DNA of 64,000 nucleotides from a candidate division WOR-3 bacterium. Lineage in GTDB: Bacteria > Hydrothermota > Hydrothermia > LBFQ01. The translations under genes and the position numbers were made by a program. Each line of letters starts with the position of its first letter. The stretch's first letter is position 1. The DNA is taken from assembly GCA_039802605.1 (NCBI GenBank), contig JBDRWW010000002.1, positions 32,001 through 96,000 of the forward strand, written 5' to 3'. This document shows, piece after piece, positions 30,733 to 52,472 of this stretch. The notes below the pieces were generated by a model. The model had not been told where the DNA came from. It saw only the letters and a list, made by a program, of their open reading frames with translations, and did no database searches.

Positions 30733-33073
30733 CTATATGTTTGAAAACACCTTCCATTTTGTCGCCTTTGTATATCGCAACCATATACACACCTTTTGCC
30801 GGCATGAGGATTTCCGTCTCCCCATTAACAACCCTCTCTATAACCTTTCTTCCCAGAGGAGAATAAACCATAACCTTTGCATTCTCACCGTTGAGGATTA
30901 ACCCACTTCTCGTAGTTATAACCTTAACACCCCCTATCGTTCTCTCTTTAATTGCCAATTCGTCGTCATCACCCAAAATACAGGCCCCCAATCCACCTGA
31001 AACCACCAAAGCAAAGGGTTGAGGCCCGTTTGGAACATTAAAACCTTTAACCTTTATGGTGAATGTGCCCCTTAAACCTTTAACCCTTATAATCTCCCAA
31101 GTGTTTGCCCTGTCAGGCGGTATAGTATTATCGTTCGGTGTTAGGTTATCCGCACCCGTTGTGGGGGCATTACCTATGAATGTTTCCCCTCCCGGCCCTA
31201 TCACGGTTAGATCAAGGTCATTAACCAAACAACCACCGCCACTTGCACAGTTCGTTGAGGCCCTGTAATCGCTCCAAGAAAGGACAAACCTTGTGACCAT
31301 ATGAGGGTTACAAACCTCAACCGAATAAACCGCTGAGTCCCCAGTGTTTAACCCTCTACCCTCATCAACGAACCAAAGCCTTGACTTTCTTTCATCCGAA
31401 GAATCCGCCAAAGAGTTCCAATTATCCTCCGGAGAGAAATACATAAAGTTATCCAAAACGAACCTGCCGGCACCTTCATTGCCGTTTGGAACATTTGTAT
31501 TACCTGCCGAATATTCGTTTCCAAAGGATACATCACGGTCGCGGGCTATCGGAACAGCCGAAGCCAGTAAAGACGCCTTAACCAAGGCGGCGGAAGGGTT
31601 GTGTGAGGGGGCGGAGTTCCTCGTCCCGTTTCCGTACCAACCCTCTTTGTAATACTGCCTTATAAGTATTGCACCGCCGGCCGTGGCGGGTGTGGCCATG
31701 GATGTACCCATCCACCACCAGGCGTTTGTGATCCCACACGATGTACCACCCCATGCCGAGTATGTGGTATCTCCTATTGCCATTATATCTATCCCGAACC
31801 TTCCGCTGGGATAACTACCATAGGCGCTCCAACCCATCTTTGCATCAACCGCCCTACCCATAGCACCCACTGTTATATCACTCTTAGCCGTTGCGGGGTC
31901 GGAAGGTGTCCTATAACATCCGGGATTACAAGCGTCATCTCCATGATTACCAGCCGCAAAAACAACCACCATATCCCTGTTGTTCCAAACGAAGTCATCT
32001 ATTGTCCGCGCATCGGTGTTGTAATTCGACGGGGCACAGCGGGTAGTAATGGAACCGCATATATATCCCCAACTGTTCGTATGGACCCTTGCACCCCTTG
32101 TATAAGCATCGGTTAATACCGTGTTAAACCCGGAACTTCCTCCCCCAAGTGGGGCTTGCGAGATGATCCTTGACATATAGGCCAATCCCCTGTATAAAGC
32201 GGAAGACGCGCTCGTGGCACTGGAATAACCGACGGCAGTTCCGGCCGTATGCGTTCCATGGCAACCCGTTCCGGGACTGCTATTACAGTTTGTCCCAGCA
32301 GGTAGGGATGCCACACCGCAACCACCTCCTCCATAATTGCAAAGCGTTACGATTTTCGGTTGCCCCAATACACTGCCGGAGAAGAAACAGTGATTTCTAT
32401 CAAGACCGTCGTCGTTATGCCCGAGAATCTCGCCCTCCCCGTGCAGCCCTTTATACCATACGATGGTATCGGTTGGATTGGTTGAAGATTGTATATCAAA
32501 CCAGAGACCGGATTGGTGGGTTACGGCTTTTCTGTTGTTCCAGTTTATTATAGGATGTTTGAACTCAACAAAGAAAACCTCCGGTAAATTTGCAAATTTC
32601 CGTATTTTATCAACATCGCCCGCGACTTCAACATACGGGTTTTGGGGGTCTATACCCCTTACTTCCAAACCTTCCTTTTGCGCTATTAGGGTTATTTTAT
32701 AAATGTCGTTGGAATCTATTAAAACAAGCCTTGCGACATACTTGCCGTTTTCTGTATAGTAGCATCCGTTTTTTAACTTTTCATTTAAGAATACGGGTAA
32801 TTTGTACTCCGGGGGTATTGGTACTATCCTCGCCACATATGGCCTTTTAAGCGCTTCTTTTAAGGAGAACTCCGAACCGGAAACCACAAAAGCGTATTGG
32901 GGTAGATAATCGTAAAACCTTATACCAAGGCTTGATAATTCTTCTTTGTATTGGGGATATATGGGTCCTTTGAATTGCAGGATATGATAGGGATTGTCCG
33001 TTACCCTACTCTCCACATTCAACTTATGCCCATTTACCCATAAAGACGGCGAAAATAAAACTAACCACATCAT
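30725..33073 (-). CDS. Secreted S8 (subtilisin, KP-43-like) serine peptidase with a T9SS-like CTD
   Basis: Triad DDGLD / HGTHTAGT / GTSMATP, oxyanion AAGN, PSAALVKA, C-terminal VYSPLGRKV...GVYMV. Confidence 0.92.
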   Translation of the reverse strand: MMWLVLFSPSLWVNGHKLNVESRVTDNPYHILQFKGPIYPQYKEELSSLGIRFYDYLPQYAFVVSGSEFSLKEALKRPYVARIVPIPPEYKLPVFLNEKLKNGCYYTENGKYVARLVLIDSNDIYKITLIAQKEGLEVRGIDPQNPYVEVAGDVDKIRKFANLPEVFFVEFKHPIINWNNRKAVTHQSGLWFDIQSSTNPTDTIVWYKGLHGEGEILGHNDDGLDRNHCFFSGSVLGQPKIVTLCNYGGGGCGVASLPAGTNCNSSPGTGCHGTHTAGTAVGYSSATSASSALYRGLAYMSRIISQAPLGGGSSGFNTVLTDAYTRGARVHTNSWGYICGSITTRCAPSNYNTDARTIDDFVWNNRDMVVVFAAGNHGDDACNPGCYRTPSDPATAKSDITVGAMGRAVDAKMGWSAYGSYPSGRFGIDIMAIGDTTYSAWGGTSCGITNAWWWMGTSMATPATAGGAILIRQYYKEGWYGNGTRNSAPSHNPSAALVKASLLASAVPIARDRDVSFGNEYSAGNTNVPNGNEGAGRFVLDNFMYFSPEDNWNSLADSSDERKSRLWFVDEGRGLNTGDSAVYSVEVCNPHMVTRFVLSWSDYRASTNCASGGGCLVNDLDLTVIGPGGETFIGNAPTTGADNLTPNDNTIPPDRANTWEIIRVKGLRGTFTIKVKGFNVPNGPQPFALVVSGGLGACILGDDDELAIKERTIGGVKVITTRSGLILNGENAKVMVYSPLGRKVIERVVNGETEILMPAKGVYMVAIYKGDKMEGVFKHIVR

Positions 33074-33151
33074 AACACCAGATATTGTAAAGTTGTGAGG
33101 TTTGTTATTTCAAGTCATAATGAACCTGCAAGCAACCTTAAAATCTCTAAT

Positions 33152-33850
33152 ATGAGTCTTTTTATTTCCTTTGTTTATATGAAGCACGAGGCTTGGGCAT
33201 CCTTTTCAAAGTTCTCCTATAAGTATAGGGATAAGAGTGCGGTGGCGGATATAGGGGGATATATGAGGTTGTTTAAGTGGGGTGATCACGGTTTGGCGGT
33301 TGGAGGGGATTTTGTGGTTTGGCTGGGTTATGATGTGGGTCTAATCCAGTTGGACCCAATATATGCGGATTATTATGTTTGGTTTGGTGGTTTTAAAGAG
33401 GCAAATAGCGGAACATGGTACTTATTCGTTGAACATCCCTGCTTCCACTACATAGACAGACTTGATACATTACCCCTGTACTGGAATGCTATAAGGTTAA
33501 TGTATAGGGAAAGGGATTTTGAGATTTCCGCTGCCCAGTACATACATAGCGAAAAGTATCAATTCCTTTCAAGGGGGACGGATTGGGGTACGGATTTGAA
33601 GGTTTTTAAAAGGTTAAGGAAAAACCTTGGGAAGGATATTTCAATGTTTTTGGATTGGTATTCGTTTCTGGCTTTGGGTAGAAATTACCGAAGTTTATAC
33701 GCATCCTTGGAAGTAAAGGGGGGATTGGAGTTTATAAATGAAAATGGGGATTTTACCATATCCCTGGGTTTTAGGCCCTATGAAAGGACAGGTATAATAA
33801 GGGATGCCGAGGGTGTCCCTTATATTTCTTTAAAAGTTAGAGGATTTTGA
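33152..33850 (+). CDS. Hypothetical protein, probable outer-membrane beta-barrel
   Basis: Aromatic-rich alternating strands and a terminal Phe (ISLKVRGF). Start moved to ATG 33152, 7 nt after TAAAAT. Confidence 0.55.
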   Translation: MSLFISFVYMKHEAWASFSKFSYKYRDKSAVADIGGYMRLFKWGDHGLAVGGDFVVWLGYDVGLIQLDPIYADYYVWFGGFKEANSGTWYLFVEHPCFHYIDRLDTLPLYWNAIRLMYRERDFEISAAQYIHSEKYQFLSRGTDWGTDLKVFKRLRKNLGKDISMFLDWYSFLALGRNYRSLYASLEVKGGLEFINENGDFTISLGFRPYERTGIIRDAEGVPYISLKVRGF

Positions 33851-33885
33851 CAAGAAATGGATTTCAGCCTTAAAATTCTGGGCGT

Positions 33886-35283
33886 ATGATATATTATATT
33901 TTAAGCGCTTGCGGATGTCCCACATACAATGTCAATTTAAGCAATAGGGTGGGGAGGGATTTACCGTACAACGACCTAAACTATATCTCAACCGAAAGGA
34001 GCATAAAAAATGTCGCATCCTGCAAGGGTAAGGTTCATGTCGCTTGGTTTGCAAGGGATTTTTCGGGGAATACGGCCATACTTTACCGTAGAAGCGCCGA
34101 CGGTGGAATAACTTGGGATCCCGCCGTACAACTAACAATCGGAAACTTGGACCTTGAACTTTGGGTTCAGTGCTATGGGGATACCGTGGTAGTTGCGTAT
34201 GAAAAACTTTTCTCTGACAAGGAAATATATTATAGGTATTCCACAAACGGTGGTGCAACTTGGAGTGCGGAAGCCGTTATGAGAGGGGGTTCTTATAACC
34301 AAGAGGGGCCATCTGTGTGGATAGGTGGGAATAAACTACACTTGGCATGGGCTGATAATACACCACTCCTTCTAACCCCCATATATTATATATTCTACAA
34401 CAATAGCACAAATTTGGGTTTGAGTTGGTCGTCAAATACCAGGTTGGATTTATCAGATTCACCCATAATAGTCGGAGACCCTACAAACCCAAACATATTG
34501 CACATTTGGTTTATGATATTCAATACCCTTGAAAGTAAGGCGAGATATATAAGGAGTGTTGATGGAGGCGCCACTTGGTCTTCAACATTTGACCTTTCAG
34601 GCGGTGTAGATGCCTCCGGAAGCGGATTTTGGAGAAGACCTGTAGGTTCAATTACGGCATACGGCATATATGTACATGCGGTCTTTGTTGATGATAGGTT
34701 TGGGAATAAGGAGGTTTTATATAGAAGATCAACGAATTCCGGCGCCTCTTGGTCGGGTATAATAAGATTGACAAATACACCCGGAACATCTTGGAGCCCA
34801 TTTATATTAACAAATCCTTTGGGGGAGGTTAGGCTTTATTGGGTTGATGATAGCGATGGGGATTACGAGGTTATGTGTAAGATTTCAACGGATAACGGTG
34901 CCAATTGGTCATCCGACGATAGGCTAACAAACAATTCCGCAAGGGATGTAATGGTTAGCCTTGATTACGACCCAACGAATTCAAGATGGCATATTGTATG
35001 GGCTTCAAACGAGACGGGCGATTGGGAGGTATATTACACATCCGACCCATGTCCTATGGGAAACGACGACGAATTGGGTGTTGAAGAAAAGGCGGATAAT
35101 GGGAATTTGAGGATATTAAGGGATGGAATAGTTTTCGATTCCGATGGAGAGGTTAAGGTTTTCGGTTGGTCGGGTAGAACTTACAAAAAGGTTTGGGTTT
35201 ATAAGGGTTATATGTTAAAACTACCCAAGGGGGTTTGGTTTGTGGAGTTTAAGGGGAGGATGTACAAGGTCGTCATAAATTAA
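33886..35283 (+). CDS. Secreted BNR/Asp-box repeat protein with a T9SS-like CTD
   Basis: Six S-x-[DN]-x-G-x-x-W repeats. C-terminal VFGWSGR...LPKGVWFV...KVVIN. TTGACA (33847) and TAAAAT (33871) promoter boxes. Confidence 0.8.
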   Translation: MIYYILSACGCPTYNVNLSNRVGRDLPYNDLNYISTERSIKNVASCKGKVHVAWFARDFSGNTAILYRRSADGGITWDPAVQLTIGNLDLELWVQCYGDTVVVAYEKLFSDKEIYYRYSTNGGATWSAEAVMRGGSYNQEGPSVWIGGNKLHLAWADNTPLLLTPIYYIFYNNSTNLGLSWSSNTRLDLSDSPIIVGDPTNPNILHIWFMIFNTLESKARYIRSVDGGATWSSTFDLSGGVDASGSGFWRRPVGSITAYGIYVHAVFVDDRFGNKEVLYRRSTNSGASWSGIIRLTNTPGTSWSPFILTNPLGEVRLYWVDDSDGDYEVMCKISTDNGANWSSDDRLTNNSARDVMVSLDYDPTNSRWHIVWASNETGDWEVYYTSDPCPMGNDDELGVEEKADNGNLRILRDGIVFDSDGEVKVFGWSGRTYKKVWVYKGYMLKLPKGVWFVEFKGRMYKVVIN

Positions 35284-35309
35284 GTAAAACGGGGGTATAA
35301 TACCCGTTT

Positions 35310-36437
35310 ATGAAATTAAGAACCGAAGAAGTTGTGTTGAACATGGGTCCTCAGCACCCTTCAACACATGGGGTTTTAAGGTTAATATTGCACCTTGAAG
35401 GTGAGAAAATAATAAAGGTTGAGCCGGTTATAGGCTATCTACATAGGGGGGTAGAAAAGTTATGCGAGTATAGGGGTTATGACAACATAGTTCCCATACT
35501 CGAAAGGAACGACTACTTGGCACCCTCTTTAAACGCCCTTCCATTTGTTTTGGCCGTGGAAAAAGGCGCAAATATAGAGGTTCCGAAAAGGGCACAATAT
35601 TTGAGGGTACTTTTGGCGGAAATTGAAAGGATAACATCGCACCTTGTGGCAATAGGTACATACGGTTTGGATCTGGGTGGCGCTTTTGGAGGTGGTACAA
35701 ACTTGGCAATGTTTTGCTTTAGGGATAGGGAAAAACTCTTGGATTTGAAAGAAATCCTTACGGGTTCAAGGTTTCACCCGAATTTTGTATTCATAGGTGG
35801 CGTTAGGTATGATGTTCCGGCGGGTTTCGATAAAAAGGTTAAAGAAACCGTAAAGTATTTAAGGAAATCCTTTGAGGATTACGAACCATTTTTAACAAAT
35901 CCGGTGTTTAAGGCGAGAACCCAAGGGGTAGGGGTTTTACCAAAGGATTTGGCCCTGAAACTCGGAACATCGGGACCCACTTTAAGGGGAAGCGGCGTCC
36001 CCTATGATATAAGAAAATCCGATGGTTATTCATCCTATAACGACTTTCAATTTAATGTTATAACCCTTGAAAGCGGGGATGCATTCGCGAGGGCAACCGT
36101 CAGGTACTTGGAAATGTTTGAGTCTTTAAAGATTATAGAACAGGTTATAGATGGATTGCCGGAAGGCCCCATAAGCTCCCGTATGCCCGTAAAAACCCCC
36201 GTTGGTATAAAACTCCCAGCGGATACCTGGGTGTACGCAAAGGTTGAAAGTCCGAGGGGCGAGTTGGGAGCGTTTATTTATTCCGATGGGAAGCCTCAAC
36301 CCGCAAGGGTAAAGCTCCGTTCCCCATCCTTCTCAAACCTTATGGCCATACAACACATATTGCCGGGGCATTACATTGCGGATACAATAGCCGTTTTGGG
36401 TTCCCTTGACCCCGTATTCGGGGATGTGGATAGGTAA
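35310..36437 (+). CDS. nuoD: NADH-quinone oxidoreductase subunit D (49-kDa subunit)
   Basis: NMGPQHPSTHGVLRL, GYLHRGVEK, ESPRGELG, DPVFGDVDR. No Ni-binding CxxC motifs, so not a hydrogenase. Confidence 0.92.
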   Translation: MKLRTEEVVLNMGPQHPSTHGVLRLILHLEGEKIIKVEPVIGYLHRGVEKLCEYRGYDNIVPILERNDYLAPSLNALPFVLAVEKGANIEVPKRAQYLRVLLAEIERITSHLVAIGTYGLDLGGAFGGGTNLAMFCFRDREKLLDLKEILTGSRFHPNFVFIGGVRYDVPAGFDKKVKETVKYLRKSFEDYEPFLTNPVFKARTQGVGVLPKDLALKLGTSGPTLRGSGVPYDIRKSDGYSSYNDFQFNVITLESGDAFARATVRYLEMFESLKIIEQVIDGLPEGPISSRMPVKTPVGIKLPADTWVYAKVESPRGELGAFIYSDGKPQPARVKLRSPSFSNLMAIQHILPGHYIADTIAVLGSLDPVFGDVDR

Positions 36438-36439
36438 AG

Positions 36440-37789
36440 ATGGATAGGGGAACAAGATTAATACTATACTTCGTTTTTGTGTTTGTTTTTTTCTTTGTAT
36501 GGGATTACTTTGTTTTGAGACCTAAAAGGGAGGCCCTTTTAAAGGAAAGCGAAAAAACCGAAAAGGTTGAAAAAAGACATGAATCCACTCCCAAAATAGC
36601 ACACTTAAAGTTCAACGGATACGAATATTTAATAGATTCAAACACGGGGGCCATTTTCGGATTAAGGGATGAAAAACACAAGGCTAAAATCTCCGGATAC
36701 ATAGTTAAGCCCCTACGCGTTGATTCCCAAGGGGTTGAGGTTGTCAAAAACGGAGTTATAACGGATAGGTTCGAGATAGCACACCTGGGAAATTTTAGGC
36801 TAAAAGTGGTTTTAAAGGAGGAAATACCCTTTGAAATAACCACACCCCTAACGGAATACAATGGTTATAGGGGTGAAAGGAAACAACTTTTTATACAATA
36901 TTTGAACGGAAAAACTAAGAAATACGATTATAAAAATGCGAATATGGACTTCTATACGGATACCGTGAAATGGATGGGTTTGAGGTCAAGGTATTATTTG
37001 GCATCGGTATGGGATTTTAAGGGTTTTGCATCCTCTTTTAAGGATGGCGATAGGATAACCATAAGGTTGTATCCGAAAGGGGATAAGGAGTTTTACATAT
37101 TTCTTGGACCCGCGGAGAGGAATTTGCTTTCCGGAGAACCCGATATGAGGGCGGCTTTTGACCTCGGGGGTGGGTGGTCCACATTTATCGCATGGCCCAT
37201 ATACTGGGCTTTAATATGGTTTGAGGGTTTAACAAAAAATTACGGGCTTGCCATAATCCTTTTGGCAATACTTATAAAAATCCTAACATCACCCCTATCA
37301 ATAAATATTTACAAATCCTCTCAGAAAATGCAGAAGTTAAAACCAAAACTTGAAAAAATACAAAAACTCTATAAGGATGACCCAGAAAGGTTGCAATGGG
37401 AAACCATGAAACTTTACAGGGAAGCCGGCTTTAATCCCCTGAGCGGATGCTTGCCCCTACTCTTGCAACTTCCCATATTCTTTGCTTTATATCAGGTTTT
37501 GCAGAACGCAATAGAGTTAAAGGGGGCGGAGTTTCTATTATGGATAAAGGATTTAAGCCATAAGGACCCGTACTATGTTCTCCCGATAGTGATGGGGGGT
37601 ATAAGCCTATTGAACGCTTACCTTCAACCCGGTTTGGATCCGCAGGCGAAAAGGACATCAATGATTATGTCCGCCTTATTCGTGTTTATTTTCCTAAGTT
37701 TTCCCGCGGGTATAGTTCTGTATTGGTTAATATACTCCCTTTTGGGCATCGTTGAGCAGAGAATATACAAAGCATTATGGAAACTATAA
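36440..37789 (+). CDS. yidC: Membrane protein insertase YidC
   Basis: NYGLAIILL, NPLSGCLPLLLQLPIF, WIKDLS..DPYYVLP, PAGIVLYW. Confidence 0.94.
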   Translation: MDRGTRLILYFVFVFVFFFVWDYFVLRPKREALLKESEKTEKVEKRHESTPKIAHLKFNGYEYLIDSNTGAIFGLRDEKHKAKISGYIVKPLRVDSQGVEVVKNGVITDRFEIAHLGNFRLKVVLKEEIPFEITTPLTEYNGYRGERKQLFIQYLNGKTKKYDYKNANMDFYTDTVKWMGLRSRYYLASVWDFKGFASSFKDGDRITIRLYPKGDKEFYIFLGPAERNLLSGEPDMRAAFDLGGGWSTFIAWPIYWALIWFEGLTKNYGLAIILLAILIKILTSPLSINIYKSSQKMQKLKPKLEKIQKLYKDDPERLQWETMKLYREAGFNPLSGCLPLLLQLPIFFALYQVLQNAIELKGAEFLLWIKDLSHKDPYYVLPIVMGGISLLNAYLQPGLDPQAKRTSMIMSALFVFIFLSFPAGIVLYWLIYSLLGIVEQRIYKALWKL

Positions 37790-38367
37790 TCCTAAGGATA
37801 ATAATCAGTCCCTTTTTGATATTATCCTTAACATTTCACGAGTTTGCCCACGCTTGGAGTGCTTACAAACTTGGAGACCCAACCGCAAAGTATGAAGGTA
37901 GGTTATCGTTAAACCCTTTGGTGCATTTGGATTTGATAGGCCTCTTAATGGTTATCCTTGTGGGGTTTGGTTGGGCAAAACCCGTACCCGTCAACCCCTA
38001 CAACTTTAAAAATCCCCCATTGCATACATCCATAGTGGCATTCGCGGGTCCCCTTTCCAACATAATTTTAGCCTTAGTAGGTGTTATAGTTTCAAAGTTT
38101 ATAAACCCCGTAGGAATTGATACATTCGTGTGGATAAACATATATTTGGCGGTTTTTAACCTTATACCCCTTCCACCATTGGACGGTTGGAGAATCCTTC
38201 AAGGCTTATATCCGAGGTTTTACGGCGATTATTCCCTTGAAGTAAAACTTTCCTATGTATTACTCGGCATAATCTTTGTTTCCATACTAACCCCAATTGA
38301 TATAATAGGGTGGTTCCTCTATCCAATTTCATCGTTTATATACCTCCTGTTGCACTCGTTGGTATGA
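37777..38367 (+). CDS. Site-2 protease (M50 family)
   Basis: HEFAH, GDPT, FGWAKPVP, AGPLSN, NLIPLPPLDG. Confidence 0.92.
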   Translation: METIILRIIISPFLILSLTFHEFAHAWSAYKLGDPTAKYEGRLSLNPLVHLDLIGLLMVILVGFGWAKPVPVNPYNFKNPPLHTSIVAFAGPLSNIILALVGVIVSKFINPVGIDTFVWINIYLAVFNLIPLPPLDGWRILQGLYPRFYGDYSLEVKLSYVLLGIIFVSILTPIDIIGWFLYPISSFIYLLLHSLV

Positions 38368-39683
38368 GGTTAAAATCGGTTTTGTCCTTTTTTGTGGGAA
38401 CATTAATAAGTAGAATCTTGGGTTTTTTCCGGGAAATGGTTTTTGCCTATGCCCTCGGTTCAACATACTACGCGGATGCGGTTGTTGTGGCGATAAGGAT
38501 ACCCACGATGTTGAGGGGGATCCTCGCGGAAGGTATTTCGCAAAACGCCTTCATACCGGTTTTTACAAGGTGGAAAGATGGAAGGCTTTTATGGGCGTTA
38601 ATATTTATAGTTTTAATCGCAACAACAATTGCGGTTTTGTTGGGTATCCTGCTTTCCCCTTACATATTAAAAATAATGGTTCCCGGTTTCGTTGAGGACC
38701 AGGAAAAGTTTTCGTTTACATTATGGGCAACGGTTATAACATTCCCCTCTTTATTCTTTATAAGCGCAGCATCCATAGAAATGGGGGTTTTAAACTCAAA
38801 GGGTAAATTTTTCTTATCATCTATATCACCGGTATTCTTCAACCTGGGAATGATAATTTTCCTCCCCTTCGCAAAAAACTATCCCATACTCGGGGCGTTT
38901 TCGTTTTTATTCGGTTGTTTTTTACAATTTCTGTTTTTATTGTTTTTTATAGGGGAAAGGTATCAAAAACCCGATTTCAAACACCCCGCCATTTCGGATT
39001 TTTTAAAAAACTGGCTATCCTTGGGTTTAAACAGCGGATTTTTACAATTGGCGACATTTGTTAATACATTTATGGCATCCTTCTTACCCACGGGTTCGCT
39101 GGCTTATCTAAATTATGCTTTTAGGTTGGTTCAATTACCCCAAGGGTTGGTGGGGGTATCCTTTGGAACGGTTTTATCAAAGGAAACATCGGAGAAGGAA
39201 GGGTTATCATTAAAAAACCTCAAAAAATCCCTTGTAATTGCCTCCGTTTTGGCGTTAATTTTTGTTTTAATTTTCGGGCTTTTCGGGGAATTTATAATAA
39301 GGGTTTTGTTCGTTAGGGGAAAATTTACGGTGGAAGATGCCCACAACACATATATGGCGGTTGTGGGTTATTTGGCAACCGTTCCTTCATTTATATATTC
39401 CTCAATATTTCTATCCCACCTTTTCGCTACTTTTAAGAGGAAGTGGGCGAATACCGGATTGGCCATATCAACGATTGTAAATATAATCTTTGCCCCAATT
39501 TTGGTAAAACTACTTGGATTTGTGGGAATTGCATTGGCGGTTTCCATATCCCAAAGTTCCGCCATAGTATACTGGTCAATTAAAACCTTGAACTTAAACC
39601 GTTTCTCGGCCCTTGTAATCCTTGCGCTTTTATTAACCCTTACCTTTTCGTTGGTTTTAATACTTTTTAACCTACCTGTTTAA
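38364..39683 (+). CDS. murJ: Lipid II flippase MurJ (MviN)
   Basis: SRILGFFRE, RIPTMLR...EG, AFIPVF, YAFRLVQLPQG, RGKF. Start moved to ATG 38364. Confidence 0.9.
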   Translation: MRLKSVLSFFVGTLISRILGFFREMVFAYALGSTYYADAVVVAIRIPTMLRGILAEGISQNAFIPVFTRWKDGRLLWALIFIVLIATTIAVLLGILLSPYILKIMVPGFVEDQEKFSFTLWATVITFPSLFFISAASIEMGVLNSKGKFFLSSISPVFFNLGMIIFLPFAKNYPILGAFSFLFGCFLQFLFLLFFIGERYQKPDFKHPAISDFLKNWLSLGLNSGFLQLATFVNTFMASFLPTGSLAYLNYAFRLVQLPQGLVGVSFGTVLSKETSEKEGLSLKNLKKSLVIASVLALIFVLIFGLFGEFIIRVLFVRGKFTVEDAHNTYMAVVGYLATVPSFIYSSIFLSHLFATFKRKWANTGLAISTIVNIIFAPILVKLLGFVGIALAVSISQSSAIVYWSIKTLNLNRFSALVILALLLTLTFSLVLILFNLPV

Positions 39684-40307: not shown

Positions 40308-40345
40308 AAACGGTAAGAATTATAACCGCGTTTATAATAGCGGTA

Positions 40346-42158: not shown

Positions 42159-42196
42159 CCCACAAGCAAATAAAACAACAGTATAATACCGGGTTT

Positions 42197-42918: not shown

Positions 42919-42931
42919 AAGGAGGTGAAAT

Positions 42932-43126
42932 ATGGGGAACAAAAAGGGAAGGACATTTGATTATAAGGATGTGGAAACTTTAAGCAAATACATTTCGCCT
43001 ACCGGTAAAATCCTCCCGAGGAAATATACAAAACTCTCCGCAAAGGAGCAGAGGAGACTGGCAAAAGCCATAAAGAGGGCGAGGATAATGGCGTTATTAC
43101 CATTCGTAAGGGAGTATGTGGTATGA
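42932..43126 (+). CDS. rpsR: 30S ribosomal protein S18 (short, Cys-free form)
   Basis: DYKD...GKILPR...[27 protein letters not shown]. Confidence 0.96.
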
Positions 43127-44485: not shown

Positions 44486-44766
44486 TGATGTTTAAATTTA
44501 CGGCGGTAATAAGGCTTCTGGAAGATGGGAATTACGAGATACGCTTTCCGGCGATAAAGGGAATTAGGGCGAGGGGTTTTACGGTCATTGACGCCATTGA
44601 GAACGGGGAAAGGGCTTTGAGGAGGTTCTTAGAAGGTAAAATAAACAGGGGTGAGGATATACCATTGGATGTTAAAACCGTTTCCGTTAACACCGAAGAA
44701 TCCGAGGAAATAATTATAACCAAAGTTATAGTTTTCATTGATGAGAAGGGTATGCTTGAAGCGTAA
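44482..44766 (+). CDS. HicB-like antitoxin domain protein (no hicA adjacent)
   Basis: FTAVI...DGNYEIRFPAIKG...G.T..DAI...GEDIP. Confidence 0.75.
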   Translation: MMMFKFTAVIRLLEDGNYEIRFPAIKGIRARGFTVIDAIENGERALRRFLEGKINRGEDIPLDVKTVSVNTEESEEIIITKVIVFIDEKGMLEA

Positions 44767-45797
44767 TGAGAATTCTAATCCTTGCGGATGCGTCCGTATC
44801 CCACCCATACAAATGGGCTAAGATTTTGGAAGATTTGGGGAACGATGTAAGGATATTGACATTTGAAAAACCTTTAAATCACGACCTCGTGGAAAGTTTC
44901 AAATTACCCTTGGGAAGGTTTAAGTATATTTTTGGAATACCAAAAATTGCGGGATATGTTAGGGAGTTTAAACCCCATATCCTTTTCCCCCACTTTTTAC
45001 CCAACTACGGCTTTGTATCGTACTTTTTTAAAGGTTTTAAAATCTTGGCCCTTTGGGGTTCGGACATAATGGCATGGCCTTATAAATCCCCCCTACATAA
45101 AAGATTAGCCGAAAATGTTTTAAAAAAATTTAACTTTATCGTATGCGATGCCTTAATCGTAAAGGATATTCTCGTAAAAGATTTTGGGATTTTGGCCGAA
45201 AAAATATATGTTATTCCCTTTGGCGTTGAAAGGGAAATTAGGGAAAAACCCTTAAAGGATTTACCTACGGATGTTTTAACATTTGTATCAACGCGCAGAA
45301 TTGAGAAGCTGTTTAACCACTTTGAGATTTTGAGGTTTATAAAAAAACTTTCGGAAAGGTTTAAGGTTAAAATCCTCTATCTAAACGATGGTTCTTTGAG
45401 GGAAGAGGTTATAAGGTTTGCAAGGGATCTGAAAATTGATTTTGAATATCTCGGAAAGGTTCCATATGAAGAATATGTTGAGGTTTTACAAAACTCACAC
45501 TTCTGCATATCAATACCTTCAAGGGATGCAACTTCTGTATCCCTTTTGGAGTGTATGGCTTTGGGAAGCGTTCCATTGGTTTCGGACATCCCAGCCAACA
45601 GGGAATGGGTGGATAACAACGGAATATTAACAATACCCAATGCGGATGAGATGTTTAAGGGGTTTATAAGCCGTTTTAGTTGGGATTGGTGGAAGGAGGC
45701 AAGGATGAGAAGTAAAGAGATTGTTATAAAAAGGTGCAATTGGGAGGAGAATGTTAAAAGGTTTTGGTATGAGATATTAAAAGGATTCAGTGTCTGA
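44766..45797 (+). CDS. Glycosyltransferase family 4 (GT-B)
   Basis: WGSDI, IPFGV, SLLECMALG.VPLVSDIPANRE. Confidence 0.88.
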   Translation: MRILILADASVSHPYKWAKILEDLGNDVRILTFEKPLNHDLVESFKLPLGRFKYIFGIPKIAGYVREFKPHILFPHFLPNYGFVSYFFKGFKILALWGSDIMAWPYKSPLHKRLAENVLKKFNFIVCDALIVKDILVKDFGILAEKIYVIPFGVEREIREKPLKDLPTDVLTFVSTRRIEKLFNHFEILRFIKKLSERFKVKILYLNDGSLREEVIRFARDLKIDFEYLGKVPYEEYVEVLQNSHFCISIPSRDATSVSLLECMALGSVPLVSDIPANREWVDNNGILTIPNADEMFKGFISRFSWDWWKEARMRSKEIVIKRCNWEENVKRFWYEILKGFSV

Positions 45798-47853
45798 AAA
45801 GCCTTTTGCCCGTGAAAACGAGCTTTAAACCCAATTCCTTTGCCCTTTCTATGACCAACTCATCCCTTATTGAACCTCCGGGTTCAACCACAACCTTTAT
45901 GCCAAACTTGTGTGCCAATTCCACCGAATCGGGAAACGGGAAAAACCCATCCGAAACCAAAAACCCACCCTTTGCGTTTTCACCGGCCTTTTCAAGGGCT
46001 ACCCTAACCGCGGTAACCCTATCCACCAACCCGCTACCCACACCGAATAGGGTTTTATCCTTAACCACAACGGCCGCGTTTGACTTTGCCCATTTTACCA
46101 TTTTTAAACCGAACAAAATATCGGAAATCTCATTCTCATCAAAATTACCCACCTTATAATCAAAATTCTCATAAGGTGGCGAATAATCGTTGGTTTGTAT
46201 AAGTATATCGTTTCCGAGCATTAAAAGGTTTATATGCGGAAACCGATATTTAAAGGGGTCTATCCGCAATATGCGCAAGTTTTTCCTTTTGGATAATATC
46301 TCAATTGCCTTTGGAGAGTAATCCGTGGCTATTATTACCTCAAAGAAGTGTTCCCCTAACATCTCCGCCAAATCCTCCTCAACGGCAAAGTTAAAGGCCA
46401 CTATACCCCCAAAGGCGGCCATCATATCACCTTTTAGGGTTTTTTGATAAACTTCCATGGGCGATTCCCCTTCCGCACCCGCGCAGGGGGACATGTGCTT
46501 AACTATAACGCAGGCATACCCTTCAAATTCCGAAACGCAAGAAAATGCGGAAAAGGTATCCAATATGTTGTTGTATGAGAGTTCTTTACCCGAGATTTGT
46601 TCAACGGATGATAAAAATGAGTTGGGGTTTGTTTTTATCCAAGCCTGCTGGTGGGGATTTTCCCCATACCTTAAAGGTTTTGGTTCAGATATATGGATAA
46701 ATATGTTTTTGTGCATATTCGCCCTATCAAGAATTGATGCCAATGTCTCGTATATGTTTATATCGTATTTTGATGTGGTGGCAAAGGCCTTAACCGCAAG
46801 TGAAGCCCTAAGTTCATAAGAAACCTCACCGTTTTCCATTTCATCCATAACCCTCCGTATATCGCTCAAATCGGTTATTACAACCACATACTTAAAGTTT
46901 TTGGCGGCAGCCCTTATAAGTCCAACCCCACCTATGTCTATCATCTCCAGAATCTCTTCAATATCTTCCGTCTTTTGAGCAACTTCCATAAATGGATACA
47001 ATTGTACCAAAACTATATCGATTCTCGGTATGTTCAACTGTTTTGCCACTTCACCCTCGCCATCCCTGCGGTGTAAAATCCCACCAAAGATATAAGGATT
47101 TAAAGTTTTTACCCTACCACCAAATATCTCGGGAAATCCCGTTATTGAAGAAACCTCAAAGGCCAAAATCCCGTTATCGTTGAAAAACTTCGCCGTTCCC
47201 GTTGTGGATATTATGGTATAACCCTTATCCGTTAAAAACTTAGCGAATTCCAAAAGTTCCGGTTTTTTCTCGTAAGCGGTTATTAAAGCATACGGAACCC
47301 TCTCGTTAAAAAGGAATTCAACTATAACATCGAAATACAAAGCGTGTTCAACCGAATGAACCCTATTTTCAAAACTTTCAAGGGATTCTTCATTAAATAA
47401 GGGTATAACCTTCTGGGCGAGTATTGGGCCACCGTCCACCTCCTCCGTCGCTATATGAACGGTTACCCCGGAAAACTTAACCCCACTACTCCAAGCCCTT
47501 TGTATGGCCTTTGTTCCCCTAAAAGATGGCAACAGGGATGGATGAATGTTCAATATTTTCCCCCTAAATTCTTTAATGGTTTCCGGTGGCAATATTTTCA
47601 TAAAGCCCGCCATTACAACCGCATCGACCTTGCCAAAGGAATTTATGGTATTTATGAGTTCTTCACCGGTATCGGATATAACCCTGTATGGTATTCCCAA
47701 CCTTTTAGCCCTCTCTATCGCATAGGATTCGGGATTATCGGTTATTAACGCCAAAACATTTATGGGAAACTTGCTCACCCTTGCCCTTTTAACTATAACC
47801 TCAAAATTTGAACCGTTGCCGGAAGCCAATATTACTATGCGCTTTTCCTTCAA
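45787..47853 (-). CDS. purH: Fused PurN (GAR transformylase)-PurH (IMP cyclohydrolase / AICAR transformylase)
   Basis: About 180 N-terminal aa with ASGNGSN, NIHPSLLP and VDGGPI (PurN). Then GGRVKTL, IDIGG, LRYGENPHQ, SDGFFPF, RLFRH (PurH). Single open frame. Confidence 0.93.
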   Translation of the reverse strand: MKEKRIVILASGNGSNFEVIVKRARVSKFPINVLALITDNPESYAIERAKRLGIPYRVISDTGEELINTINSFGKVDAVVMAGFMKILPPETIKEFRGKILNIHPSLLPSFRGTKAIQRAWSSGVKFSGVTVHIATEEVDGGPILAQKVIPLFNEESLESFENRVHSVEHALYFDVIVEFLFNERVPYALITAYEKKPELLEFAKFLTDKGYTIISTTGTAKFFNDNGILAFEVSSITGFPEIFGGRVKTLNPYIFGGILHRRDGEGEVAKQLNIPRIDIVLVQLYPFMEVAQKTEDIEEILEMIDIGGVGLIRAAAKNFKYVVVITDLSDIRRVMDEMENGEVSYELRASLAVKAFATTSKYDINIYETLASILDRANMHKNIFIHISEPKPLRYGENPHQQAWIKTNPNSFLSSVEQISGKELSYNNILDTFSAFSCVSEFEGYACVIVKHMSPCAGAEGESPMEVYQKTLKGDMMAAFGGIVAFNFAVEEDLAEMLGEHFFEVIIATDYSPKAIEILSKRKNLRILRIDPFKYRFPHINLLMLGNDILIQTNDYSPPYENFDYKVGNFDENEISDILFGLKMVKWAKSNAAVVVKDKTLFGVGSGLVDRVTAVRVALEKAGENAKGGFLVSDGFFPFPDSVELAHKFGIKVVVEPGGSIRDELVIERAKELGLKLVFTGKRLFRH

Positions 47854-47895
47854 GCGGGAATTTTAATGTTGAAAGTGCAACCGTAAAATTTCCGG

Positions 47896-48531
47896 ATGTA
47901 TAAAGAATTCCTTGAAGAGGTGGAGGAGTTTAAGGAAAAGATAGGTCGTAAGGATGAGATAAAAATAGTTGCCATTTGTAAAGGGGTTTCGGTTGAAAAG
48001 ATTTTAAAAGTTTATGAGGAGGGTTGTAGGGATTTCGGTGAAAATAGGGTTCAAGAGGCGGAGAAAAAAATACCCCTTATCGGAAAACCGGACATAACTT
48101 GGCATATGGTTGGGCATTTACAAAAAAACAAGGTGAACAAGTTTTTAAGGTTATTTGATGTTTTGCACTCCCTTGACGGTGTTGAACTCGCACAAGCAAT
48201 ATCAAAGAGGACATACAAAAAGGTTAAGGTTTTTGTTGAGGTTAATACAAGTGGGGAACCTCAAAAGTTTGGCGTAAAACCAGAAGAAGCCGATAGAATT
48301 ATAGAAATGGTTAAAGAAATCCCAAATTTGGAACTCCTAGGTGTTATGACGGTCGGTCCATATCCGCCTGATGAGTATAAAAGCAGAAAGGCATTTGCCC
48401 TTCTAAGGGAAATAGCGGAGAGGAATAATTTGAGATATATATCCGCGGGTATGACGGAAGATTGGAAATACGCGCTAATGGAAGGGGCAAATGTTTTGAG
48501 GATAAGAAGGGGGATTTTTGGGGAGGGATGA
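47896..48531 (+). CDS. yggS: PLP homeostasis protein YggS family
   Basis: VAICK, FGENRVQE, WHMVGHLQKNK, SAGMTED, EGANVLRI. Confidence 0.93.
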   Translation: MYKEFLEEVEEFKEKIGRKDEIKIVAICKGVSVEKILKVYEEGCRDFGENRVQEAEKKIPLIGKPDITWHMVGHLQKNKVNKFLRLFDVLHSLDGVELAQAISKRTYKKVKVFVEVNTSGEPQKFGVKPEEADRIIEMVKEIPNLELLGVMTVGPYPPDEYKSRKAFALLREIAERNNLRYISAGMTEDWKYALMEGANVLRIRRGIFGEG

Positions 48532-49694
48532 TGTTCCCCTTTATTCCGGATACATCACAAATCGTATATTTTCAAACCTACACATATCAAACCATAAATA
48601 TAAACTCCTGTTATAGGTATGAACTTGAAGCCCTACCCTTTCTAACGCCCGATCAAATAGACATAATCCTTAGGAGGAGACCTTACAGGGATTGGGAGGA
48701 CTTTTTGAGGAAAACCGGTTTTAAGGATTACGAGGTGGAGTATTTAAAAAACTTTTTGGTTTTTGGAAAGGAGAAGTTTTACAAGGTTTTTATAAAGGGT
48801 GGGAATAAAGGATATGTTCTATCATCTGGGGGAAGGAACGAAGATTGGGTATACAACTTCTACCTAGGTAGGGATACATCCTTTTTTATCCTTAAAGAGG
48901 GGTTTTTTAAGGTTTTTCTTGGAAACTCAAAGGTAGTATCTCCGTTGGGTTTTGCCGGACATAGCGGGTATTATTCAAACGAGGGTGAAATATCTTTTGT
49001 TTATTATTCCCAACCTTCGTTTGGAATTGGGATAGGGAAGGCGATTGCGAAAATTGGGAAAAAGGGTGTAATAGGGGGATATTTATCGGAAAATGGTGGG
49101 ATATTGGTATCCAAGGATTCGGTGATTGGGGGAATATCATTTGTTAAATTTGGACCGTTTTCCTTTGAGGGAGCCTTATCAAAGGGATCGTTTGGATTTG
49201 GTGTTAGGGGTTATTCAAGGGATGGGGGCTTTATGGTTAAGTTTTTTAACGGAAAACCATTTTGGAACGAAGGGAGTCAAAGAAATTATTATTCGCTTTG
49301 GTACAGGTGGCACTTTTTGGGGATTAATATGAGGATTTACATATCGTCAAATGGCGAAAGGTTTTCCCTAAGCTTTGGAAAGAACAATGAGAGTGTAAGG
49401 GTTGAATACTTTCAAGTTCCTAGGGTTAATTTAATGCTGAAAAACTTCTTAGCCGGGGCGTGCCCGGGTTGTGTATATGTCGGCATTGAATACCGTTTTT
49501 TCCGGTTTAAGGTTTATTCCTTTACAAAAAGCGGAATCCAGTTTTATGAAGATGCATATTCGTCTAGAACATTTGTTTCATCCGAGGGGTATGCGGCTTT
49601 TTTGGGTTTTAGGTATAAAAACATCGGTTTCTTACTATCCAACAAAGGGAATTCCATAAATTGGGAAATGTGGTTTTTTACCTCTCTGAGATAA
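48528..49694 (+). CDS. Hypothetical protein: N-terminal ComEA-like helix-hairpin-helix plus a probable outer-membrane beta-barrel
   Basis: ININSC..ELEALPFL...I...R, followed by Gly/aromatic-rich strands. Start moved to ATG 48528. Confidence 0.6.
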   Translation: MMFPFIPDTSQIVYFQTYTYQTININSCYRYELEALPFLTPDQIDIILRRRPYRDWEDFLRKTGFKDYEVEYLKNFLVFGKEKFYKVFIKGGNKGYVLSSGGRNEDWVYNFYLGRDTSFFILKEGFFKVFLGNSKVVSPLGFAGHSGYYSNEGEISFVYYSQPSFGIGIGKAIAKIGKKGVIGGYLSENGGILVSKDSVIGGISFVKFGPFSFEGALSKGSFGFGVRGYSRDGGFMVKFFNGKPFWNEGSQRNYYSLWYRWHFLGINMRIYISSNGERFSLSFGKNNESVRVEYFQVPRVNLMLKNFLAGACPGCVYVGIEYRFFRFKVYSFTKSGIQFYEDAYSSRTFVSSEGYAAFLGFRYKNIGFLLSNKGNSINWEMWFFTSLR

Positions 49695-50703
49695 CCGCCA
49701 TCAGGAATTCCTTTGTATAGGGTTCGGTATCAAATACAAAGATTTCCTTAACCTTCAACTTGTTCATTCTGACCTGTTCATACACCCTTTTTGGTTTTCT
49801 CCCGAAGAATACAAAACTATTACCCCATACTTCCGGTATATTTCCCAAAAATCTATCGGTATTTATAACAACCCATTCGTACCTTTCGGTATGGAAAAAG
49901 GAAAAGGACTTAAAACCCAAACTTTCAATTTTAGAAGGTGAGTAGTGAATAATCCTATTCTCCTCCATTTCCCTAAGGATTAGGGGATTTTCCTCAACAT
50001 AGGTGGCAATTGAATTTAATGGGAATAAATAACCCGTCCCCAAAGCCAAAGCGCCCTTAAACCCATCAAAAACCTCCCAAACCTTGGGTAAAATGTAAAG
50101 GTTATCGGGATATATCCCAAAGGGGGAGAGCTTCAACTTAATGCCTTCAACCTCAAAGGGTAAAAACATCTTACCCCTTCCCCCGTTTATGTAATCCATT
50201 TTCCCCTTTACAACCCACCAAATTCCGCCTATACCCTTTCCGGAGTATATTATGTCATAGGTTAGTTTTTTCAAAAAAACTTTCCGCCTAAGGTTCAGGG
50301 TTATAACAACCTCGTCGTCGTTGGTTATGAATGTTATTCCCATTAATTTACCCTTTCCCACCTCCGGGTCCCATGTGCTTATCCTTTCGTTTGAGAGTTG
50401 TTTTTGCAAAAAACCTATAACATCGTTTATCTTAGGCCTCAATATGGGGCATGCGCTTATACCGAAAATTATCCCGGATTCCAAAGAATAGCCCAATATA
50501 ACCTTATCGCGTTTTATCCTCTTTACATTTAAAATCACCCTAAACTTGTAAAACTTATCCTTTGGGGATTCAACTATTTTCGGGTCTATTCCGAAAATTT
50601 CCCTAATTTCGGCAACCTTTATGCGAACACTTCCTTTATAATCAACATCCTGATAAAAACACCTCGGGCATTCTCCGAAGTATCTACAAAAGGGGACCGC
50701 CAA
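49678..50703 (-). CDS. Degenerate RlmD/TrmA-like RNA m5U methyltransferase homologue
   Basis: CRYFGECPRC...CPI Fe-S motif and overall layout are retained. The SAM motif, DPPR and catalytic YVSC are eroded. Confidence 0.65.
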   Translation of the reverse strand: MAVPFCRYFGECPRCFYQDVDYKGSVRIKVAEIREIFGIDPKIVESPKDKFYKFRVILNVKRIKRDKVILGYSLESGIIFGISACPILRPKINDVIGFLQKQLSNERISTWDPEVGKGKLMGITFITNDDEVVITLNLRRKVFLKKLTYDIIYSGKGIGGIWWVVKGKMDYINGGRGKMFLPFEVEGIKLKLSPFGIYPDNLYILPKVWEVFDGFKGALALGTGYLFPLNSIATYVEENPLILREMEENRIIHYSPSKIESLGFKSFSFFHTERYEWVVINTDRFLGNIPEVWGNSFVFFGRKPKRVYEQVRMNKLKVKEIFVFDTEPYTKEFLMAVISER

Positions 50704-51120
50704 TTACCTTTTAGGGCCAAACAAGGCCTTTATTCTACCCCACGAATGCTCGTCCAGAGAGGATGGAATCTCGTTTTTTCTGCCCGGAGTTGCTACCAAG
50801 AACATCCTGAAATCACCGCGGCCGTCTGGATACCTACCCATGCTCCCCTGAGCGGGGAGGCTAATCCAAGTATAGGAATCAACGGTGTTTGAACCGTTTT
50901 TGAGAACAACGCTATCGGAGTTTATACTCAAACCCATGTAAAAAACCTTATATTCTCCGGGATTAATAACACCAAATAGGTTTAGAGTTCTGTTTTTCGT
51001 TATCAAAGTAAAATCGCTTAAATTTACGGGTGTTGAACCCGTATTATAAATCTCCACCCAACCCGAATCCGAACCTACCACCCCCACTTCGTTGATTACC
51101 AAAGAAAAGGTCAATACCAC
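50704..51120 (-). CDS. Lamin-tail-domain (LTD) secreted protein with a C-terminal SWGRIKALF motif
   Basis: VINEV, WVEIYN, SMGRYPDG, TPG..N. Confidence 0.8.
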   Translation of the reverse strand: MVLTFSLVINEVGVVGSDSGWVEIYNTGSTPVNLSDFTLITKNRTLNLFGVINPGEYKVFYMGLSINSDSVVLKNGSNTVDSYTWISLPAQGSMGRYPDGRGDFRMFLVATPGRKNEIPSSLDEHSWGRIKALFGPKR

Positions 51121-51129
51121 CAGCTAGAT

Positions 51130-51191
51130 ATTATAAGGGGGAGAAATCCTTTGTCAAGCGGCTTGACAAATAAATCATACCACCTTATAAT
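51130..51191. promoter_or_regulatory. Back-to-back divergent sigma70-type promoters
   Basis: Plus strand: TTGACA 51163-51168, 17 nt, TATAAT 51186-51191, 9 nt before ATG 51201. Minus strand: TTGACA 51152-51157, 16 nt, TATAAT 51130-51135, 9 nt before GTG 51120. Confidence 0.85.
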
Positions 51192-51200
51192 GCCCGTACT

Positions 51201-52472
51201 ATGCTTTGGACAATATCTTGGGTAGTTGCACCTGTTATAAACGATACAATTTTTAAGGGGGATACATGCCCCGGAACTGCCGTCCACTCCGCATTGGTTG
51301 GAATACCGTCATCTTACGCGTGTGCGGATATAATGTTTGCCTTTGACCTAACGGGTTCAATGGGTGGGGAACTTTCGTATGCGCAAGCAAACGCAAATGC
51401 AATAATGGACAGCCTTATGTCATCAATACCGGATGTTAGGTTTGGAGTGTCATCGCATTCGGATTACCCGGCATCTTACTCCTGGTGCGGATATTCCGAT
51501 ACATACGGAATTTTCGAAGATTTTCCTTATCAACTGAACCAACCCCTAACTTATGATACCGCACTCGTCAGGTCTGCAATATACTCCCTCTCTATATTAT
51601 ATGGAGCAGATAGTCCCGAGGATTATGCGAGGCTTTTATGGGAAATGTTGAACGACCCCGGAATCGATTGGAGAAGATCTTGTGCGAGGTTCGTGGTGTT
51701 TTGGCTTGACAATATACCGCATGCTTGCGATATATACGACCCTTCAAGGCCTTATTGGACAAACACTGGGGTCGAACCCGGAAGGGATGCCACGGCTGGA
51801 ACTCCGGATGACATATATTGGTATCCCCTTTTGAGGGATTTGAGGAGAAACGGAATAAAACCTGTAATAATGGTTAGTGCAACTTATACATACTACCTCC
51901 CTTGGTGGCAGTATTGGATGTCCGATACCCTCGCGGATGGCATAGCAACCATAAGGGGCAGCGGTATAGCGAGGCAAATAGATTCCATTGTGAATTCAAC
52001 GGCCTTAACCATAGACACTTTAAGGCCTGTTGTTAGGGAACCCGCATATACCTCCTGGGTTAGTTTCACACCACCATATTATGCGGGTATAACCCTTTCG
52101 CCACCGGAGGATACATTCGGCTTCACAATAACCTTTAATGTTCCACCTGCCGCCCCATCGGGCTTACACACATTCCACATAGACTATTACAGGGATGCCA
52201 TACTCGTTGACAGCCAGTTGGTGAATTTATGGGTTTATGACTGCACGGCCGGGTACGACGACCCGATAGCTGTCAAGGAGAGGTTGAGCAGGGATAAGGT
52301 TATAATCACGCAAAATGCGGTTTATGTATCCGATGGATATACCGTTGAAGTTTATTCTGCGGACGGTAAGAGGATATACACATTGAATTCCGGAAAATAC
52401 GAGTTCAGGAATAGGGGTATATACTTCGTAAGGGTTAAGGGAGGAAAGACCTTTAAGGTCGTTGTCAGGTAA
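51201..52472 (+). CDS. Secreted vWA-domain protein with a T9SS-like CTD
   Basis: DIMFAFDLTGSMG (MIDAS), GADSPED, IDWR. C-terminal VYSADGKR...GIYFVRV...KVVVR. Confidence 0.82.
   Translation: MLWTISWVVAPVINDTIFKGDTCPGTAVHSALVGIPSSYACADIMFAFDLTGSMGGELSYAQANANAIMDSLMSSIPDVRFGVSSHSDYPASYSWCGYSDTYGIFEDFPYQLNQPLTYDTALVRSAIYSLSILYGADSPEDYARLLWEMLNDPGIDWRRSCARFVVFWLDNIPHACDIYDPSRPYWTNTGVEPGRDATAGTPDDIYWYPLLRDLRRNGIKPVIMVSATYTYYLPWWQYWMSDTLADGIATIRGSGIARQIDSIVNSTALTIDTLRPVVREPAYTSWVSFTPPYYAGITLSPPEDTFGFTITFNVPPAAPSGLHTFHIDYYRDAILVDSQLVNLWVYDCTAGYDDPIAVKERLSRDKVIITQNAVYVSDGYTVEVYSADGKRIYTLNSGKYEFRNRGIYFVRVKGGKTFKVVVR

Follow-up and report, generated by a model that had tools for sequence, protein, structure and literature searches.

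A family-restricted cysteine and acidic motif at the junction between passenger and C-terminal sorting domain in type IX secretion-type proteins of a WOR-3-type bacterium

Three genes in a 64,000-nucleotide stretch of the genome of a candidate division WOR-3 bacterium (G000:C2:32001-96000, the whole of which we call the window) encode secreted proteins that end in a C-terminal sorting domain (CTD) of the kind carried by cargo of type IX secretion systems (T9SS). Just ahead of this domain all three share the motif C-x-x-G-x-D-D-x-[LI]-x-[VI]-x-E. The motif recurs across the cargo of this genome (G000; 1.65 Mb in 23 contigs, 41% G+C, 90% complete) and is confined to the organism's own family. 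In the reading that we favour, and hold with about as much doubt as confidence, it is a composite T9SS-type junction module: a Cys belonging to a passenger disulfide, then an acidic spacer specific to the family, and then a general cleavage-site element.

The three motifs lie where an earlier note on the window had placed them, CILGDDDELAIKE on the minus strand, and each sits exactly at the passenger/CTD junction (Table 1). The passengers are, as that note had claimed, unrelated: a Peptidase_S8 subtilase (P0001), a BNR_2 propeller (P0002), and a vWA/integrin-beta-like protein (P0003). A Pfam search of P0003 gave no match, and PF00362 is precomputed on its relatives P0019 and P0026. The tails of the other CTD proteins of the window (starting at 2617, 16212, and 20616) were checked and do not carry the motif. 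The three tails look like T9SS type A sorting domains. Against the curated TIGR04183 cut-off of 23 bits, P0001 and P0003 score below and two motif-less neighbors score above, while a TIGR04183 search gave no match on P0002.

We built a hidden Markov model (HMM) of the CTD from the genome's own protein tails. It detected 76 open reading frames (ORFs), with the match at the C-terminus and no more than 12 residues from the stop in all 76, and it united the motif proteins with their motif-less window neighbors. An alignment of 20 CTD tails has two invariant residues, G45 and G62, and the consensus VY...GR.V ... KG.YF ... KVIVR. The tails of this genome show the T9SS type A CTD motifs that PMC11969387 names B (the Y..G loop), D (G-x-Y), and E (a basic strand at the C-terminus). 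A longer CTD subtype (...SYVGINVYTTSGRLVKRF...KGVF) occurs in several near-identical copies on short ORFs of contigs C4, C6, C11, and C16 (o3916, o5277, o6604, o7239, and o4102), at least one of which, on C16, is close to a contig end; these copies look like a repeated gene family or a collapsed assembly.

The strict regular expression C..G.DD.[LIV].[VIL].E matched 6 times in 7662 ORFs, each time 58-85 residues before the C-terminus, and had no match in any of 200 residue shuffles. The core, G.DD[PE][LIV].[VI].E, had 11 matches, as compared with a mean of 0.05 in the shuffles, and each of them lies 54-82 residues before a C-terminus. A chance origin of the motif is excluded, and the motif is neither limited to the three window proteins nor placed at random, two outcomes that the earlier note had set against its own proposal. 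With a looser pattern the motif was found in 18 of the 76 CTD proteins, 17 of which have a Cys 1-6 residues ahead of the Gly. Gapped variants in two further proteins bring the count to 18-20 of 76; the motif marks a subset of the cargo, as had been suggested from the window. It takes two forms, G-Y-D-D-P-[IV] and G-[GDN]-D-D-E-L.

The passengers of the 20 motif proteins comprise seven FG-GAP propellers, two S8 proteases, one BNR protein, one vWA-like protein, and one DUF3344 protein, the rest having no Pfam match. This spread over at least five unrelated passenger types rules out a trait of a single passenger family, and S8, BNR, and FG-GAP passengers each occur both with and without the motif. 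We also rejected the motif as the mark of a distinct CTD subtype: a comparison of the final 42 residues between 20 CTDs with the motif and 47 without it showed no clustering by motif (permutation p 0.66), and the nearest neighbor of a motif CTD was itself a motif CTD in 5 of 20 cases, with 5.8 expected.

One half of the motif is general. Of 67 full-length CTD proteins, 42 carry the element x-[VI]-x-E at a distance of 42-82 residues from the end, where it mostly follows A, G, or S. Because it is present both with and without the acidic extension, we regard [LI]-x-[VI]-x-E as a general junction element. The class specificity that had been attributed to the whole motif thus holds for G-x-D-D-[E/P] and fails for [LI]-x-[VI]-x-E, which is common to most CTD proteins. 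The available text of PMC11969387 describes Bacteroidota CTDs with a cleavage-site motif (consensus PT/GI in P. intermedia), in which a small Gly, Ser, or Ala is favoured at +1 and Ile at +2, and places cleavage in the coil between passenger and CTD. The same definition fits the motif and non-motif proteins here, which have a small residue at +1 and Ile or Val at +2 within the passenger-CTD coil. By this analogy the cut would fall between [LI] and [AGS], and C-x-x-G-x-D-D-[E/P]-[L/I] would then remain on the mature protein.

A DNA pattern of the strict form of the motif was run over 272 genomes of the phylum, 12 of which, in two genera, make up the organism's own family. Eight of the 12 family genomes yielded 22 matches between them, the remaining 260 genomes yielded 5, and a reversed-pattern control yielded 3. 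All 22 family matches lie 56-94 codons ahead of a stop and are followed by a CTD, while none of the five outside the family precedes a CTD and two of those five contain a stop. With the DNA pattern of the Cys-less core, the 12 family genomes had 65 matches (control 0) and the 7 genomes of the sister family had none; by a rough tally, the other 260 genomes of the phylum had about 70 against about 45 in the control, which is about chance. G-x-D-D-[EP] is in none of 33 CTD tails from three genomes of sister families; in one sister genome, a junction Cys is present by eye in 7 of 13 CTD tails. The pattern search that the earlier note had proposed therefore recovers the motif in relatives, with a CTD after all 22 strict-form family matches, and the motif is limited to the family.

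A scan for the GYDDP form over one genome per prokaryotic species, a collection that may omit very near genomes, gave two records only, both identical to known family sequences. When 1.84 billion representative proteins were searched with a profile, 672 matched at E <= 0.001. Many of the best 150 of these 672 are long repeat proteins that match the CTD-core part alone, in several stretches; among the same 150 are 67 single-stretch C-terminal matches, about 25 of them with variants of the motif, including three proteins (P0053, P0085, and P0158) without a nearby Cys. One of the 33 CTD tails from sister families, that of L044 (G030:C74:466-2580) in another family of the class, has the acidic junction E-D-S-D-D-V-G-V-G-E, without Cys or Gly, which may be an independent or an ancestral form of the acidic stretch.

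Within the family the motif is well kept. In the alignment of the vWA-like protein (the query and 23 of 27 matches, with P0004, P0007, P0018, and P0030 left out), C-x-x-[GNS]-[YW]-D-D-P-[IT]-x-[VI]-x-E is found in 14 of 14 close family members (63-100% identity); the 10 distant homologs, which belong to other lineages, have ordinary signal peptides and different C-terminal domains, with no CTD and no motif. All nine close orthologs of the BNR protein (46-100% identity) keep D-P-C-P ... D-[DE]-[DE]-L-[GS]-[VI]-x-E, and distant BNR homologs with a YPNP-type CTD have ...P-T-G-I... at the aligned place and no Cys. The closest S8 orthologs keep the motif as C-x-x-G-x-D-[DNE]-[ED]-L. Overall, the Cys, D-D, and L-x-V-x-E are conserved down to 46-50% identity while adjacent linker residues vary.

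We ran AlphaFold2 (AF2) with the ortholog alignments and obtained models with a mean predicted local distance difference test (pLDDT) score of 82.6 for P0003 and 84.7 for P0002. The last passenger strand spans residues 334-345 in P0003 and 381-386 in P0002, and in both models the Cys stands 3 residues beyond it. G-x-D-D lies in the sole internal near-junction segment with pLDDT <50 (351-364 in P0003 and 392-399 in P0002), and the CTD strands start a few residues past this linker, from 367 in P0003. The two models thus place the motif, as had been claimed, within the linker where Bacteroidota T9SS cargo is cut.

The junction Cys was followed most closely in the S8 proteases, for which the set was P0001 and all 31 matches of at least 48% identity among 120 of the 274 matches found. 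Of these 32 orthologs, 17 have the junction Cys, and 16 of the 17 also have a Cys aligned with P0001 C588. The junction Cys stands alone in one ortholog (P0302), no ortholog has the partner alone, and 15 have neither (Fisher 5.7e-8, uncorrected for relatedness). Two passenger families show a fixed spacing to the partner Cys, C-x7-C and C-x19-22-C; S-C-x7-C is found in one FG-GAP group, and D-C-[WI]-x...C, with the second Cys about 20 residues on, in the DUF3344-like group. For the C-x19-22-C spacing, two members in G000 have the offset -20. One motif protein has exactly two Cys. Passenger Cys density is 1.69% in motif proteins as compared to 0.88% in non-motif proteins (Mann-Whitney p 1.4e-4).

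Because it covaries with an internal Cys and the partner spacing is fixed, the junction Cys is best read as the end of an intramolecular passenger disulfide. This is largely the passenger-specific disulfide that the earlier note had named as the outcome that would count against a signal. The staple probably predates the acidic stretch, since the sister-family orthologs L042 and L066 keep both Cys and have no G-x-D-D; in sister-family junctions C-V-T-Q-I-S-I-D-E or C-D-G-A-E-L-V-T-P-I-S-V-D-E replaces C-x-x-G-Y-D-D-P.... All six Cys of the BNR protein are confined to its nine close, thermophile-lineage orthologs and are missing from 17 distant homologs, which suggests a wholesale gain of disulfides in the secreted proteins of this lineage. 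A lipobox reading of the Cys is ruled out by the variable residues that precede it (DP, YD, GA, YT, LT, and others). A general enrichment of Cys near junctions is not apparent in the non-motif proteins, of which about 7 in 47 by eye have one, near a rough background of about 13% per 12-residue window.

The acidic stretch was scored as at least two acidic residues at P5-P2 and the junction Cys as one within 12 residues. By these definitions 15 junctions of G000 have both, 5 the Cys only, 2 the acidic stretch only, and 20 neither (p 2e-5). The S8 alignment shows G-x-D-[DNE]-[ED]-L as an insertion in family members; other WOR-3-type orthologs, some of which carry the source names 'candidate division WOR-3' or 'Candidatus Hydrothermia', have C-x-x-T-P-V or P-x-P-T-P-V. 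In the second genus of the family, the motif precedes a longer CTD subtype that is motif-less in G000. That unrelated, Cys-ending proteins of one family acquired the motif in parallel favors selection, not shared descent, as its source. Self-cleavage at the Asp-Pro bond of the GYDDP form was considered and dropped, as a D-P bond is missing from the second form and conditions in the habitat are alkaline; the available text of PMC11696919 gives pH 8-9 and >75 °C for the hot-spring genus Caldipriscus, to which this organism may belong.

The composite module that we propose would be assembled as follows. [A/G/S]-[V/I]-x-E would be the general start of the sorting-domain region, and a PorU-like C25 peptidase is predicted to cut before its small residue. 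The Cys would be the last structured residue of the passenger, held by a disulfide to another passenger Cys; this staple would be a feature of Cys-rich passengers and older than the rest. G-x-D-D-[E/P]-[L/I] would be a disordered acidic spacer, an insertion between the stapled Cys and the cut that dates from the family's common ancestor. After cleavage the spacer would stay behind as the mature C-terminal tail, ...C-x-x-G-x-D-D-E-L. Its benefit may be that, on cargo with the C-terminus held against the folded body, the peptidase still meets a defined and exposed segment on the P-side.

Several points weigh against this reading. The sister-family orthologs combine a stapled Cys with a short non-acidic linker, so the spacer is not strictly required. 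Within G000 the two also come apart, with a junction Cys but no acidic stretch in five proteins and the converse in two. By the definition used, 25 of the 67 full-length CTD proteins had no anchor and stand outside the junction table. The cut position in this lineage is placed solely by analogy with Bacteroidota. The pairing of C588 with C698 is likewise deduced from covariation and not from an S-S distance, and the covariation may reflect perhaps only 2-3 independent evolutionary events. Cys parity is weakly favorable: among 18 motif proteins, 12 have an even total, and that of the S8 protein is 15. As for the machinery, the PorU- and PorV-like genes score below their curated cut-offs (Table 1). 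With Bacteroidota models, GldK and GldM were not found in this genome and GldL reached 19 bits against 68; GldN was not searched, and the absence of Gld proteins is not proven because the genome is 90% complete and the models are Bacteroidota-built. Together, the weak PorU and PorV scores and the undetected Gld proteins indicate that the machinery may differ from that of model systems, and the T9SS here may be reduced or divergent.

One possibility, which we consider unlikely, is that C-x-x-G-x-D-D-[E/P]-[L/I] is a class-specific sorting or attachment signal that a dedicated enzyme or anchor would recognize as one unit. On this view cargo with the motif would be covalently attached to the surface or rerouted, and cargo without it released. 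Strong P-side conservation is indeed unusual: PorU, the T9SS sortase, shows little preference for sequence at its cuts in the available text of PMC4804311 and PMC11969387, the former describing PorU cleavage in P. gingivalis as sequence-independent, and a 'sortase-like' transpeptidation by PorU appears in that of PMC4560394. The motif is also independent of passenger type and CTD subtype, it was gained in parallel on unrelated proteins inside one family, and the genome has three C25 peptidase genes beyond the PorU-like one. The co-occurring processing enzyme that the earlier note had envisaged did not emerge: the one C25 paralog profiled, of C25-FG-GAP-CTD architecture, is found in 55 of 64 genomes of the class (E <= 1e-10), motif-less families included, and so has no motif-specific profile, although no genome-wide profile was made. 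Moreover, the Cys is accounted for by a passenger disulfide that predates G-x-D-D, and S8, BNR, and FG-GAP proteins with and without the motif do not form a functional class.

Of the proposal that the motif is a sub-sorting, cleavage, or attachment signal, what stands is that it is real, junctional, and restricted to a subset of cargo; its Cys is explained otherwise, and we obtained no positive evidence for sorting. Such a role is the less likely reading, and less likely still is a more specific version, in which the stapled Cys and G-x-D-D-[E/P]-[L/I] are a true recognition signal that steers disulfide-rich T9SS cargo to a dedicated route. One of the extra C25-FG-GAP-CTD peptidases, for example, would act as a second, sequence-specific sortase and the ...DDEL-type tail would be fixed covalently or ionically to the surface, with motif-less cargo released.

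It could also be speculated that the acidic residues beside the stapled Cys bind a divalent cation or shield the disulfide at >75 °C and alkaline pH, and that they have nothing to do with processing. The junction Cys in 15 of 17 acidic junctions and the several Cys gained in thermophile-lineage orthologs are consistent with such a stabilizer. We nevertheless judge it improbable, as the stretch has pLDDT <50 and no contacts in the AF2 models of two proteins, its position is fixed to the cut-site element and not to the Cys alone, and sister-family orthologs from similar genomes do without it. We know of no metal-binding pattern that the acidic stretch fits. Least probable of all is a neutral legacy, in which a linker-plus-CTD cassette spread by recombination and the motif is simply what the ancestral cassette contained: CTD proteins are numerous (76) and modular and the motif is in one family only, but the CTD cores beside the motif resemble one another no more closely than other cores do, the motif occurs with two CTD subtypes, its codons differ between copies, and the Cys, D-D, and L-x-V-x-E persist where neighboring linker residues do not.

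Table 1. Features of the window and candidate T9SS genes of the genome. Positions refer to the window unless a contig of G000 is named.
Feature	Position	Strand	Evidence and details
S8 protease junction motif CILGDDDELAIKE	30944..30982	-	Translation; residues 698-710 of 782 in P0001; 72 residues to C-terminus
S8 subtilase P0001 with CTD	30725..33073	-	Peptidase_S8 84.9 bits; TIGR04183 17.3 bits; genome-specific CTD HMM
Cys588 codon of S8 protease, putative disulfide partner of junction Cys698	31310..31312	-	Covariation, 32 orthologs
BNR propeller protein junction motif CPMGNDDELGVEE	35050..35088	+	Translation; residues 389-401 of 465 in P0002; 64 residues to C-terminus
BNR/sialidase-like beta-propeller gene P0002 with CTD	33886..35283	+	BNR_2 45.3 bits; CTD via genome-specific HMM
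vWA-like protein junction motif CTAGYDDPIAVKE	52242..52280	+	Translation; residues 348-360 of 423 in P0003; 63 residues to C-terminus
vWA/integrin-beta-like gene P0003 with CTD	51201..52472	+	DxTGS motif, D-x-T-G-S-M invariant; TIGR04183 20.7 bits
CTD protein with only the general ...TSVSE junction element, no Cys/acidic extension	16212..17771	+	TIGR04183 25.9 bits
BNR CTD protein without motif	2617..3996	-	BNR_2; tail inspected
FG-GAP and CTD ORF without motif, 3' piece of split C25-FG-GAP-CTD gene	20616..22868	-	TIGR04183 30.7 bits
SprA-like gene	G000 C4:5733-9797		374.5 bits summed, cut-off of 200 passed
PorU-like 1137-aa C25 peptidase	G000:C5:48939-52349 (L004:559-3969 -); PorU-like region C5:49881-52013		312 bits vs cut-off 420; Peptidase_C25 210 bits; own CTD
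PorV-like barrel	G000 C2:177781-178728		58 bits vs cut-off 250

Some features of these genes are worth recording in their own right. The CTD of the PorU-like protein is of the classical YPNP type, unlike the short CTDs on most cargo here. Three minus-strand ORFs of the window (24183-24659, 22792-24225, and 20616-22868, together 20616-24659) are colinear with a 1395-aa paralog comprising C25 peptidase, FG-GAP, and CTD. The pieces are in different frames, with two frame changes near 24190 and 22845, and in a genome of the same genus the 94%-identical ortholog is a single open frame of 1383 aa; the split gene is either a pseudogene or the product of assembly errors. The BNR protein begins with MIYYILSACGC (33886-33930, plus strand); this hydrophobic start is very short, contains a lipobox-like L-S-A-C, and has a second Cys. 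This A-C-[GA]-C is kept in 7 of 7 close orthologs whose N-terminus is present, and distant homologs do not have it.

The junction has the anatomy of the Bacteroidota type A cleavage-site motif as given for P. gingivalis, T. forsythia, and P. intermedia in the descriptions available. Both lie in an unstructured coil that links the final passenger domain to the beta-sandwich of the CTD; both have a small residue, then Ile or Val, then often an acidic residue; and in both the CTD follows with its Y..G-loop Gly, G-x-Y, and a basic C-terminal motif 45-75 residues on. The difference is that a subset of the proteins here has a strongly conserved P-side G-x-D-D-[E/P]-[L/I] after a Cys, whereas in those descriptions the Bacteroidota P-side is little conserved and no Cys/acidic extension is mentioned. 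In addition, the host here is a WOR-3-type thermophile, and cleavage is predicted.

Sortase-type signals (LPXTG/sortase and PorU) resemble the motif in being a short conserved sequence just N-terminal of a removable sorting region, with a conserved part that would be retained. They differ in that here a folded beta-sandwich CTD follows and not a transmembrane helix, the motif is on a quarter of the cargo only, and a dedicated enzyme was not identified, one C25 paralog having been profiled. In the MYXO-CTERM and CGP-CTERM tags, an invariant Cys immediately precedes a C-terminal sorting region that is cleaved off. A hydrophobic transmembrane helix comes next, and this Cys is considered to be modified. 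Our motif likewise has a Cys ahead of the sorting region; unlike theirs, it covaries with an internal Cys, and a T9SS-type CTD follows. A literature search returned no paper that combines T9SS and WOR-3, and the main-text passages that it covered describe no Cys/acidic junction motif. The motif extends the T9SS cleavage region on its P-side in a way that this lineage alone conserves; it modifies a known signal and does not define a new kind of system.

Work on T9SS processing has been confined almost entirely to Bacteroidota, and the sharply conserved retained-side sequence reported here comes from an uncultured thermophile family outside that phylum. Should the machinery read the acidic tail, the tail would be the first signal for T9SS processing or anchoring that is specific in sequence, and it would provide a handle to predict which cargo is retained on the cell. 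If it is a mere spacer, it would illustrate disulfide stapling of the C-terminal end in hyperthermophile secreted proteins and the adaptation of the linker to it. On either reading, the motif is a clean annotation marker for cargo in this lineage.

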